From positions 1-4,757 of the IMG/VR virus record IMGVR_UViG_2529292985_000017: 4,757 nt of DNA. One strand, written 5' to 3'. Under the pieces are notes generated by a model that was not told the DNA's origin, searched no databases, and saw only the letters and a list, made by a program, of their open reading frames with translations. Shown here in pieces: positions 1 to 4,757 of the stretch. This stretch comes from a virus. Its lineage: Duplodnaviria > Heunggongvirae > Uroviricota > Caudoviricetes. Numbering within the stretch: position 1 is the stretch's first letter; every line of letters begins with the position of its first letter. A program made the position numbers and the translations under genes.

Positions 1-863
1 TACTGTCACCGCTGGAAGAAGCGCTTCAGGATTATGTGCTGACTGACGGTAAGCTCCATGCTGATGACACGCCTGTCCCGGTGCTGTTGCCAGGCAATAA
101 GAAAACGAAGACCGGGCGGTTATGGACCTACGTTCGTGACGACCGTAACGCCGGGTCAACGCTGGCGCCGGCGGTGTGGTTCGCTTACAGCCCGGACAGA
201 AAAGGCATCCATCCGCAGACCCATCTTGCGGGGTTCAGTGGTGTACTGCAGGCGGATGCATACGCCGGGTTCAACGAGCTGTACCGGGATGGCCGGATAA
301 CGGAAGCCGCCTGTTGGGCTCACGCCCGCCGTAAAATCCACGATGTGCACGTTCGCACCCCGTCAGCCCTGACGGAGGAAGCGCTGAAACGGATCGGCGA
401 ACTGTACGCCATCGAGGCAGAGATAAGGGGAATGACGGCGGAGCAGCGCCTTGCCGAACGTCAGTTGAAAACGAAACCGCTGCTGAAATCCCTGGAAAGC
501 TGGCTGCGTGAAAAGATGAAAACCCTGTCGCGACACTCAGAACTGGCGAAAGCGTTCGCATACGCCCTGAACCAGTGGCCGGCGCTGACGTACTATGCAG
601 ATGATGGCCGGGCTGAGGCGGACAATAACATCGCTGAAAATGCGTTGCGGATGGTCAGTCTGGGCCGCAAAAACTACCTGTTCTTCGGTTCGGATCATGG
701 AGGAGAGCGGGGAGCGCTGCTGTACAGCCTGATCGGGACGTGCAAACTGAACGGAGTGGAGCCAGAAAGCTACCTCCGCTATGTCCTTGACGTCATAGCC
801 GACTGGCCGATAAACCGGGTCGGCGAACTGCTCCCCTGGCGCGTAGCACTGCCGACTGAATAA
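1..863 (+). CDS. tnpC: IS66-family transposase TnpC (orf3), C-terminal ~287 aa; 5' end outside window
   Basis: Frame is open from position 3 ([26 protein letters not shown]...) to TAA at 861-863. The translation has the hallmarks of IS66 TnpC as I recall them ([24 protein letters not shown]). The track ORF 36..863 is only the first in-frame GTG within a frame that is open to the window edge. Confidence 0.9.
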
Positions 864-868
864 CACAT

Positions 869-900
869 CCCCGTCAATACGGTTCTTGCTGCACGCTTAC
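869..900. repeat. IS66-family right terminal inverted repeat (copy A)
   Basis: Reverse complement of 869-900 matches the first ~30 nt at 4433-4464 at about 22 of 30 positions by hand alignment, including the shared GTAAGCGT start. The inner boundary is approximate. Confidence 0.6.
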
Positions 901-1086
901 AGATTAGCCCCCGTTCTGTTGTCAGGTTTTACCTCTCAACGTGCGGGGGTTTTCTCTTTCCAGCAACCAATGCCACCAGGGATAAAGCCCCCGCAACATT
1001 GCGCCTCACCGGATAATTCCGGCTTGGTGTGGATACTACGACTCAATTCATCTTCACTTCATCCCTGAAATGTTTGCAATGAAGAG

Positions 1087-2154
<1,068 letters not shown>

Positions 2155-2159
2155 ACGCT

Positions 2160-2633
2160 ATGGGTACGGTGACGTTTGACTGTCGGATGTTTGTCAGTCT
2201 GTACCCGGAGTTTTCCACGGTGACACCGGAGCTACTGACGGCGGTGTTTAACCGGGCGACCGCGTTGTACCTGGATAACACGGACGACAGTCCGGTTACC
2301 GACCTGAAGGAGCGGGAACAGCTTCTGTTCCTGCTGGTTGCGCATCTGTGCGCATTGCGGGGGCTGGGAAACGGGAGAGACGGGCAGGCTGGTCTGGTGG
2401 GGCGTATCACCAGTGCGTCGGAAGGTTCTGTATCGGTATCGGTATCGGTATCGGTATCGGTGGATAATAGCGGCAGTAATGATGCGTCGTGGTGGTATCT
2501 CCAGACCCCCTGGGGTGCTGACTACTGGCAGGCGACAGCGCCATACCGCTCAATGCAGTATCATTCCGGGGGGGCACCTTCGCGATATCCGGGGCATTAT
2601 TACCGGGGATACGGGAGGGGGCGTCGATGGTAA
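2160..2633 (+). CDS. DUF4054-like phage head-tail connector/neck protein
   Basis: 157 codons, with AGGAG about 10 nt upstream of the ATG. The N-terminal half ([21 protein letters not shown]...[12 protein letters not shown]) and the GSVSVS...WYLQTPWG region fit my recollection of the DUF4054 family. The stop overlaps the next start (ATGGTAA). Contains the (SV)n repeat. Confidence 0.7.
2430..2461. repeat. Perfect hexanucleotide tandem repeat (GTATCG)x5 plus partial unit, in-frame within the CDS 2160..2633
   Basis: Direct reading: gtatcg at 2430, 2436, 2442, 2448 and 2454, then gtg. It encodes [10 protein letters not shown] in the annotated frame; the overlapping frames read (YR)n and, on the reverse strand, (IP)n. 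Confidence 0.95.
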
Positions 2634-3211
2634 ATAAAGTCACAGGTGGCAAACAGTTCCGGCAGAAGCTGAAACAGGTTGCCGCGAACCTTTCATTGGG
2701 TAAAAAACTCAAAGTGGGTTTTCTTGAGGGAGCAACTTACCCTGACGGTACGTCAGTGGCTTATATTGCCGCAGTTCAGGAGTTTGGTGGAAGAGCGGTC
2801 ATACCCGCCCGTGAGCAGACGCTCCACTTTCGCTATAACGAAAAAACGGGAGAAACCGGGCACCGCTTTGTCAAAGCCGGTAAAGGGAATTTTGTTCAGG
2901 ATGTGGTTATTCCTGAGCACACGGTCACCATTCCCCCCCGTCCGTTCTTCCGTAAGATGATCGAACATAAAAGTCCCGAATGGGGCGAAAAAATGGCGAC
3001 CTTATTACGGGCGAATGATTTTGATACTGCGACCGCTCTGGTGTGTATGGGAGAACATATCAAAGGGCAGTTGCAGATGTCTGTTCGCGACTGGGAAAGT
3101 CCGTCCAACGCTGCATCCACTGCCCGGCAAAAGGGTTTTAACAACCCGCTTATTGAAACCGGACATATGATGGACAGCGTTGATTATTCTGTAGACGGGG
3201 GCAAAAAATGA
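2627..3211 (+). CDS. HK97 gp10-like phage head-tail joining / virion morphogenesis protein
   Basis: 194 codons; GGAGGG about 7 nt upstream. The motifs [10 protein letters not shown] and IPPRPFF resemble the conserved EfGT and RPF(L) motifs I associate with the HK97 gp10 family. Start overlaps the upstream stop and the stop overlaps the next start (ATGA at 3208-3211). Confidence 0.7.
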
Positions 3212-3573
3212 ACTTTCACGGTATTGTTTCCGGCGCAGTACGTCGGGTAAATCCCTTTACAGACGCGCTGGTTTATCGTTCCCGCGGGAGTACACAGCAG
3301 GCAGATTATTCCCGCGTACCTGAGTATGAAGATCCGGTTTCCGTCAGGGGGCAAAAGCAGGCTGTCACCCAGGCTGATTTACGTCATCTTGATAATCTTA
3401 ACCAGCAGGGAGTTTTCGCCACATTGTATACCGATGGTAACTGGTGCGGGCTTAACCGTGCCCGGCAACAGGGAGGCGATAAATTTGTTATTGGCGATGA
3501 AACGTGGCTGGTGATTGAGGTACTGGAAATCTGGCCTGACTGGACGAGGGTTATTGTATGCCTTCAGGTGTGA
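3208..3573 (+). CDS. Phage neck/head-tail module protein, unknown function
   Basis: 121 codons, translationally coupled to neighbours on both sides (ATGA overlap upstream, 16-nt overlap downstream). Position in the neck-gene run supports coding. I recognise no family. Confidence 0.7.
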   Translation: MNFHGIVSGAVRRVNPFTDALVYRSRGSTQQADYSRVPEYEDPVSVRGQKQAVTQADLRHLDNLNQQGVFATLYTDGNWCGLNRARQQGGDKFVIGDETWLVIEVLEIWPDWTRVIVCLQV

Positions 3574-4103
3574 CCCTCTCCGTTACGGAAAGCGCTCTTT
3601 ATCAGGCCCTCGGTGATTATCACCGGGGGCTTTTTTCTGATGCCGGGATTGAACGAACGCAGCAGAACCAGGTCCCGATGCCTCAGGGGAATTTCATCAC
3701 CATGACGGGCATTGATGTTACCGGATTATCCACTGCGGTAGTGGCATATTCTGCGCCAGCGCAGGCTGGTGAGGGCTCTCAGCATATCACCCGTACCACA
3801 AAATGGCGTTGCCAGCTTGATTTCTACGGCCCTCACGCGGCAGATAACGCTCAGGTGCTGGCAACGCTTTTCCGGTCTGAATTTTCCGTACGGCTTTTCC
3901 GGCAGGGCGGTGGGCTGATTTCCCCGCTGTATTGCTCAGAGCCCTTTAACACCACATTCCCCAACGGTCAGCAACAGTATGAACCGCGCTGGACGCTTGA
4001 TATTCAGATGCAGATTAACCCTGTGGTCACAACTTCCCTGATGTTTTTTGACAACGTGATCACCCGGACAACGGAGGCTGATAATGCCAATTCCACTCAG
4101 TAA
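3558..4103 (+). CDS. Phage neck protein, possibly tail-completion/terminator-like, unknown family
   Basis: 181 codons; GAGGG about 7 nt upstream. It sits immediately before the sheath-like gene, the usual position of a tail terminator or completion protein. The functional label is positional inference only. Confidence 0.65.
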   Translation: MPSGVTLSVTESALYQALGDYHRGLFSDAGIERTQQNQVPMPQGNFITMTGIDVTGLSTAVVAYSAPAQAGEGSQHITRTTKWRCQLDFYGPHAADNAQVLATLFRSEFSVRLFRQGGGLISPLYCSEPFNTTFPNGQQQYEPRWTLDIQMQINPVVTTSLMFFDNVITRTTEADNANSTQ

Positions 4104-4449
4104 AGATGTACAGATAAATCCCGGTGTGCTGGCTGTGGCGGGTAATGCCGTCGATCTTAACGGCCTGCTGTTGACCAGTAATCCGTTACTTCCGGTCGGC
4201 ACTGTGGTTCCGTTTTCCTCTCCGGATGATGTGGCCGCGTATTTTGGTGCATTATCCGATGAGTACGCACGCGCTCAGCTTTATTTCCAGGGCTTCAAAA
4301 ATGCCACCAGGACGCCGGGGCAATTGTTGTTTTCCCGTTTCAGTCCTGCCCCATCGGCGGCCTGGTTACGTAGCGGTTCGTTTAAGGGCGCGACTGTTGA
4401 ACAGCTACAAAAACTTTCCGGCACGCTGATGCGTAAGCGTACAGCCTGA
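4084..4449 (+). pseudogene. DUF3383-type phage structural (tail-sheath-like) protein, N-terminal ~116 aa only; interrupted by IS66-family insertion at 4432/4433
   Basis: GGAGG 6 nt upstream of ATG 4084. The N-terminus (...VVPFSSPDDVAAYFGALSDEYARAQLYFQGF...PGQLLFSRF) fits my recollection of the DUF3383 N-terminal region; full-length members are several hundred residues. The last codons and the TGA stop (4447-4449) lie inside the IS66 left inverted repeat. Confidence 0.7.
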
Positions 4450-4464
4450 ACCGTCTGGTCAGAA
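4433..4464. repeat. IS66-family left terminal inverted repeat (copy B)
   Basis: Imperfect inverted match to 869-900 (see copy A). The inner boundary is approximate. Confidence 0.6.
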
Positions 4465-4524
4465 TCTGACGAATTAGACAAAGTGGTGTCCACCAAATAA
4501 GTAGTGGGAACCAAAGTGTCAGAT

Positions 4525-4757
4525 ATGCAGAAAAATGTGAATCCCGGCAGGCGAAAAGGCTGCCCTAATTATCCTCCCGAATTTAAACAGCAGCTCGTTG
4601 CTGCCTCCTGTGAACCCGGGATATCCATCTCAAAACTTGCTCTTGAAAATGGCATTAACGCCAATCTGTTGTTCAAATGGCGACAACAATGGCGCGAGGG
4701 AAAGCTGCTATTACCTTCTTCAGAGAGCCCCCAGCTACTTCCTGTGACTCTCGATGC
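4525..4757 (+). CDS. tnpA: IS66-family accessory protein TnpA (orf1), N-terminal 77 aa; 3' end outside window
   Basis: Translation MQKNVNPGRRKGCPNYPPEFKQQLVAASCEPGISISKLALENGINANLLFKWRQQWREGKLL... is the helix-turn-helix N-terminal protein typical of IS66 orf1. In-frame TAA at 4498-4500; alternative starts GTG 4504 and GTG 4516; ATG 4525 chosen. The frame is open to the window end. Confidence 0.85.
   Translation, partial: MQKNVNPGRRKGCPNYPPEFKQQLVAASCEPGISISKLALENGINANLLFKWRQQWREGKLLLPSSESPQLLPVTLD

Follow-up and report, generated by a model that had tools for sequence, protein, structure and literature searches.

An ISEc22-like insertion sequence (IS) of the IS66 family has almost certainly split the contractile-tail sheath gene of an E217-like myovirus prophage at codon 117, and this is one of several IS lesions in the prophage. 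The stretch of DNA analysed here, termed the window, is 4,757 nucleotides long and constitutes the entire draft contig AERM01000079.1 of assembly GCA_000193895.2, to which it is 100% identical over positions 1-4757; a published strain table gives this assembly as Shigella dysenteriae CDC 74-1112 (PMC6397287). In the proposed course of events, an element of ~2.44 kb transposed into sheath codon 117 in a Shigella ancestor, duplicating the 8-bp target GCTGATGC. The 5ʹ piece of the gene encodes 116 native residues followed by five read from the IS, and the 3ʹ piece 379 residues beginning at the duplicated Met116. In some lineages, the IS copy probably recombined later with another one, located in the tail-fibre region, and the two gene halves were thereby separated.

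The phage-derived part of the window is a surviving prophage fragment of ~2.6 kb (about 1807-4432). Over 1809-4432 it is 99% identical to the intact, ipaH-carrying prophage of seven E. coli genomes, namely enteroinvasive E. coli CFSAN029787 and six others, in which the gene order is the same. The genes of this fragment, the signals around its sheath gene and both IS66-family pieces of the window read on the plus strand. Its neck genes stand in E217-like order: a 112-aa ORF (1816-2154), which is the first surviving prophage gene; a DUF4054 neck gene (2160-2633; Pfam); a 194-aa ORF of the neck region (2627-3211); a gp28-like collar (3208-3573; Pfam); and a neck terminator (3558-4103; Pfam). The sheath gene follows directly, with a GGAGG Shine-Dalgarno sequence (4073-4077) six nucleotides before its ATG at 4084. 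Codons 1-116 and the first base of codon 117 occupy 4084-4432, as recognised from Pfam PF11863 and from identity to the intact gene.

At 4425-4432 the sequence reads GCTGATGC, the left copy of the target-site duplication, which holds the in-frame Met116 codon. At 4433-4440 it reads GTAAGCGT, and the left end of the ISEc22-like element occupies 4433-4757, including the N-terminus of tnpA (4525-4757, start ATG at 4525; HTH_Tnp_1 match), before running off the contig. Translation of the ORF at 4084-4449 gives 121 codons, comprising 116 phage-derived codons, the junction codon 117 and IS-read residues. The IS inverted repeat supplies the last five residues, R-K-R-T-A, and the stop, with 4433-4449 contributing the rest of codon 117, K-R-T-A and TGA (4447-4449). 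The original prediction, in which a good ribosome-binding site precedes about 116 sheath-like codons that enter an IS66 left inverted repeat at 4433 and stop at 4447-4449, was correct in all of these coordinates.

The break itself was located by comparison with uninterrupted copies. In a base-by-base alignment with CFSAN029787, identity persists through 4432 and the sequences are unrelated beyond; all 349 nucleotides of 4084-4432 match the 5ʹ end of the intact 1485-nt gene in that genome. Over positions 3900-4432, agreement with seven complete E. coli genomes is 100% and ceases exactly at 4432; positions 4433-4757 have 100% identity with other copies of the IS66-family element from related loci. 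The exact IS-host junction that had been claimed is thus present, with phage identity to 4432 and IS66-family sequence from 4433, and the evidence for it is beyond chance. In the E. coli prophage copies, unlike in the window, nothing interrupts the sheath gene, the head module is complete and IS66 is absent from the site. The exact junction was absent from a species-representative genome collection, probably because this holds one genome per species.

The contig ends 325 bp into the IS, with the distal flank and the rest of the window's own copy lying outside it. The far end was studied in related loci, obtained by an exact-sequence look-up of the 121-aa product that returned ten Shigella chromosomal loci (L003-L012), most of them on megabase or complete records and taken with 10 kb on each side. 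The tnpA/tnpB/tnpC trio is complete in L003-L012, and the IS measures 2436-2441 bp in nine of the ten. One full copy (L003 10350-12790) spans 2441 bp with tnpA, tnpB and tnpC and is 99.7% identical over that length to the element that RefSeq annotates as "IS66-like element ISEc22 family", from which the name used here is taken. The left inverted repeat begins GTAAGCGTACAGCC at 4433 and the right one, as its reverse complement, GTAAGCGTGCAGCA; 19 of the first 22 positions agree between these imperfect repeats, which start with GTAAGCG (GTAAGCGT). Terminal repeats, a gene trio with DDE_Tnp_IS66, an 8-bp duplication (in the related loci) and near-identity to a named element together place it in the IS66 family. 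In length (2441 bp), identity (99.7%), tnpA/B/C content, repeats from GTAAGCGT and 8-bp duplication, it resembles ISEc22 of E. coli without notable difference, and it is a further copy of that element at a new site, the name being that of RefSeq labels and not of the ISfinder type sequence.

In nine of the ten loci, the IS finishes on the right with ...GCACGCTTAC; GCTGATGC follows, and after it comes TGAGTATTAACGG..., the in-frame continuation of the sheath gene, which leads on to the tube gene. Both the 8-bp duplication and the in-frame continuation anticipated at the far end were therefore seen in nine of ten related loci. Counting further contigs, some of them short, GCTGATGC stands 3ʹ of the IS right end in 19 loci or contigs (L003-L008, L010-L012 and L019-L028). 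The uninterrupted gene has a single GCTGATGC at the insertion site, and no uninterrupted relative with the octamer twice at that site was found. When the IS and one copy of the repeat were removed in silico, a 494-codon ORF was restored in six of the nine loci, with 1480-1481 of 1485 nucleotides identical. In the other three, additional frameshifts remain after reconstruction, due either to genuine decay or to errors in sequencing. Colinearity of both halves with the intact gene was in this way demonstrated in the related loci. The in-frame Met116 codon within the duplicated 8-mer is the reason why gene callers predict a 379-aa ORF beginning in the repeat; the window's own assembly was not among the listed places of this 379-aa fragment.

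The remaining locus of the ten, L009, has a different distal flank. The right end of its IS (10350-12790) is followed by GATTTTGC-CAGC... and then by tail-fibre and baseplate genes in inverted order, so that the recombined junction reads ...GCACGCTTAC|GATTTTGCCAGC. The reciprocal join is found in L023 (IS at 7556-9996), which reads ...GACA-GATTTTGC, IS, GCTGATGC and the sheath 3ʹ half, with an IpaH-type gene just upstream. In L003 and L010, a second IS66 copy (2109-4549 in L003) also has the octamer GATTTTGC on its left. Hybrid flanks, with GATTTTGC on one side and GCTGATGC on the other in L009 and L023, point to recombination between two IS66 copies. From these flanking sequences we infer that IS66 inserted twice, into the sheath gene and into the tail-fibre region, and that the two copies probably recombined in some lineages and thereby separated the sheath halves. 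A non-matching distal flank had been expected to signal a later rearrangement, and L009 with its GATTTTGC flank is such a case. At that position, L023 is without the whole neck-gene segment of the window, which fits a deletion or inversion between copies.

A short tandem repeat bears on how the window relates to these loci. The hexanucleotide GTATCG is repeated 5.3 times at 2430-2461, in frame within the DUF4054 neck gene, where it encodes (SV)n. Five copies are present in the window, in L009 and in several draft contigs, and two in the intact E. coli prophage and other Shigella genomes; the tract is slippage-prone and doubles as a lineage marker. Among the ten look-up loci, only L009 has the five-copy repeat in common with the window, which makes it the window's closest relative among the ten.

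The identity of the interrupted gene rests on both its fragment and its intact form. Residues 6-116 of the N-terminal fragment align with positions 2-113 of the 493-position Pfam DUF3383 profile (PF11863) with a score of 105.5 bits (cut-off 34.9). The intact 494-aa protein (L001 9185-10669) matches the solved sheath gp31 of Pseudomonas phage E217 (PDB 8env, 8fuv and 8fvg) and PDB 9b42, "gp32 Sheath", with E values of 1e-16 to 1e-17 over residues 18-457. The predicted DUF3383/sheath similarity is thus borne out by the fragment and, at E ~1e-16 to E217 gp31, by the intact form; sequence identity to gp31 is low over the alignable residues 18-457, indicating a distant relationship. Position agrees with this assignment, since in the intact prophage and the Shigella loci the gene lies between the neck terminator upstream (3558-4103 in the window) and an E217_Gp32-type tube gene downstream, gp32 being the tail tube in E217 (PMC10329688). 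The order collar, neck terminator, sheath and gp32-type tube is common to this prophage and E217.

In the E217 lattice, gp31 is held through the N-terminal arm (1-23), the C-terminal beta-turn (460-488) and the C-terminal arm (491-504) of neighbouring subunits (PMC10329688). A full-length sheath subunit comprises an N-terminal arm, globular domains, and a C-terminal beta-turn and arm, whereas the window copy corresponds to residues 1-116 only and lacks domains A-C, the C-terminal beta-turn and the C-terminal arm of gp31. It is a gene fragment (pseudogene) and not a functional member of the sheath family. As the lattice needs both the N-terminal arm and the C-terminal beta-turn and arm, neither sheath piece alone should polymerise, in which case the insertion alone would be enough to abolish tail assembly. 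From the gene structure and the E217 structure, we infer that sheath function has probably been lost.

The sheath gene is not the only casualty. The terminase, portal and capsid genes upstream of the neck are replaced by IS911 sequence at window position 1807, and a DUF2612 wedge gene has an IS3-type element inside it. The sheath remainder and the tube genes had been expected to lie beyond the far end of the IS; the sheath continuation does so in nine of the ten loci, but the tube gene is itself cut in the Shigella loci by a 768-bp IS1 after about 57 codons. The insertion had also been taken to date the prophage as defective. The prophage is defective, but with at least four IS-associated lesions the sheath insertion does not tell when or how it first became so. 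In E. coli O121 strain 201805972 (L002 6185-12354), IS1 (itself host to a nested IS66 element), IS421 and IS600 have independently cut the same sheath gene into three pieces, and the gene is thus decaying in parallel in a different lineage. The structural genes of the prophage are decaying under repeated IS insertion, and the damage is of the ordinary IS kind. IS-driven pseudogenisation and rearrangement are a known pattern in Shigella, where an enrichment of IS66 in particular lineages is reported (PMC8072062). The locus likewise has several IS families (IS66, IS911/IS3 and IS1) in one dispensable region and inter-copy recombination leading to inversion or deletion, with no difference in kind from that pattern.

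This setting also bears on whether the fragment has been kept for a function. With its N-terminal arm preserved, the 121-aa product might be expressed and act as a decoy that poisons the tail assembly of superinfecting DUF3383-type myophages; if so, prophage debris would serve as a defence factor. The ribosome-binding site has been retained, the ORF is unchanged on many Shigella contigs, and the N-terminal arm of gp31 is part of the beta-sheets formed between subunits (PMC10329688). However, recent common descent accounts for the conservation, as flanking DNA is 99.2-99.8% identical, and the same gene has been broken elsewhere by other IS elements in E. coli O121. Moreover, the neighbouring genes are decaying too, and nothing indicates expression or selection. 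A retained decoy function is therefore very improbable, and decay of a gene split by an IS is the reading followed here.

As a short draft contig bounded by repeats, the window also has to be judged for its assembly. Positions 1-900 are an IS66-family right end (Pfam DDE_Tnp_IS66 and IS66_C; 99.6-99.8% identity to the corresponding ends in the related loci), either another copy or a collapsed repeat; it comprises a TnpC C-terminus (36-863; DDE_Tnp_IS66, 273 bits) and a right inverted repeat that ends ...GCACGCTTAC at 900. Next come a 186-bp piece of a chromosomal LDR repeat (901-1086), recognised by an Rfam match to the rdlD antitoxin RNA, and, on the minus strand, a truncated IS911-like (IS3-family) element (1087-1806) with rve domains, matching copies of which RefSeq labels as IS911 family. 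LDR denotes an ldr/rdl type I toxin-antitoxin repeat of E. coli, and the rdlD match is full length (890-955, 73 bits). The first ~11 nt of this match lie inside the IS66 inverted repeat, so the IS cut the LDR element at or near its 5ʹ end. At its other side, the IS911 fragment adjoins the first surviving prophage gene two bases into the start codon (1807-1816). That gene has 115 codons when intact (L001 6928-7275); here an internal ATG at 1816 opens an ORF of 112 codons that lacks the native ribosome-binding site.

What lies left of the IS911 end (1086/1087) differs among assemblies: it is the LDR piece in the window, a phage holin gene in the loci on megabase contigs and closed chromosomes (L003-L012) and panB-side chromosomal backbone in the draft locus L013. 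Either a real IS911-mediated rearrangement or an assembler's repeat resolution could account for these flanks. The left-hand joins of the window at 900/901 and 1086/1087 may likewise reflect the assembler's repeat resolution, given repeats at both contig ends, and the left third of the contig should not be trusted for linkage. Such variation, together with a complete 4757-bp draft contig bearing IS66 sequence at both ends, could suggest that the assembler also wrongly extended the contig into a repeated IS at the sheath gene. However, the same junction with its 121-aa product is present on contigs of >1 Mb in 16 blocks of the collection, several closed chromosomes included, and the product occurs on 107 contigs under the NCBI name "MULTISPECIES: DUF3383 family protein [Shigella]". 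The junction at 4432/4433 is unaffected by the assembler issues, being the same in independent complete genomes, and the likelihood that it is an artefact is negligible.

Another alternative is that the 121-codon ORF is a naturally short DUF3383-type gene merely adjoining an IS. An open reading frame with a good ribosome-binding site does exist, but nothing more speaks for this. Over its 349 phage-derived nucleotides it is identical to the start of a 1485-nt gene, its last five codons and stop lie inside the IS inverted repeat, and its Pfam match covers only profile positions 2-113 of 493. Homologues are of full length: in the large protein collection, all but about 12 of the 120 listed measure 490-498 aa, and most of those that are shorter are cut off by a contig end or come from other disrupted copies. 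Of the 200 homologue records listed from the phage collection, 187 have at least 80% query coverage, the best match being the "tail sheath" of Pantoea phage PA-1 at 52% identity. Among the homologues listed from both collections, there was no DUF3383 protein of naturally ~116 or 120 aa with its own stop. A homologue ending naturally near residue 116 had been named as one finding that would overturn the truncated-sheath reading; none was seen, almost all being 490-498 aa. The alignment to the intact gene and the homologue lengths refute a naturally short gene, whose chances are practically nil. Programmed or recoded read-through was rejected as well, the last ORF codons being plainly IS inverted-repeat sequence.

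A further feature of the prophage is a neighbouring ipaH-type gene. The intact prophage of CFSAN029787 ends beside the type III effector gene ipaHa (L018 7168-8931), and in the Shigella loci an LRR_TTSS+NEL (IpaH-type) gene stands beside the prophage remnant (e.g., L003 1-1713). This arrangement suggests an association of the prophage with an ipaH gene, which it may have delivered and which persists while the phage genes decay.

Element, gene family and process have all been described before, and public annotation already contains the two pieces of the gene. The significance of the finding beyond correct annotation is very small, and it neither raises nor settles an open question. For annotation, the 121- and 379-codon "DUF3383 family proteins" of Shigella in the databases are the two halves of one sheath pseudogene. 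The locus illustrates clearly how repeated IS insertion and IS-IS recombination break down an ipaH-associated prophage in Shigella, and the common junction could serve as a lineage marker.
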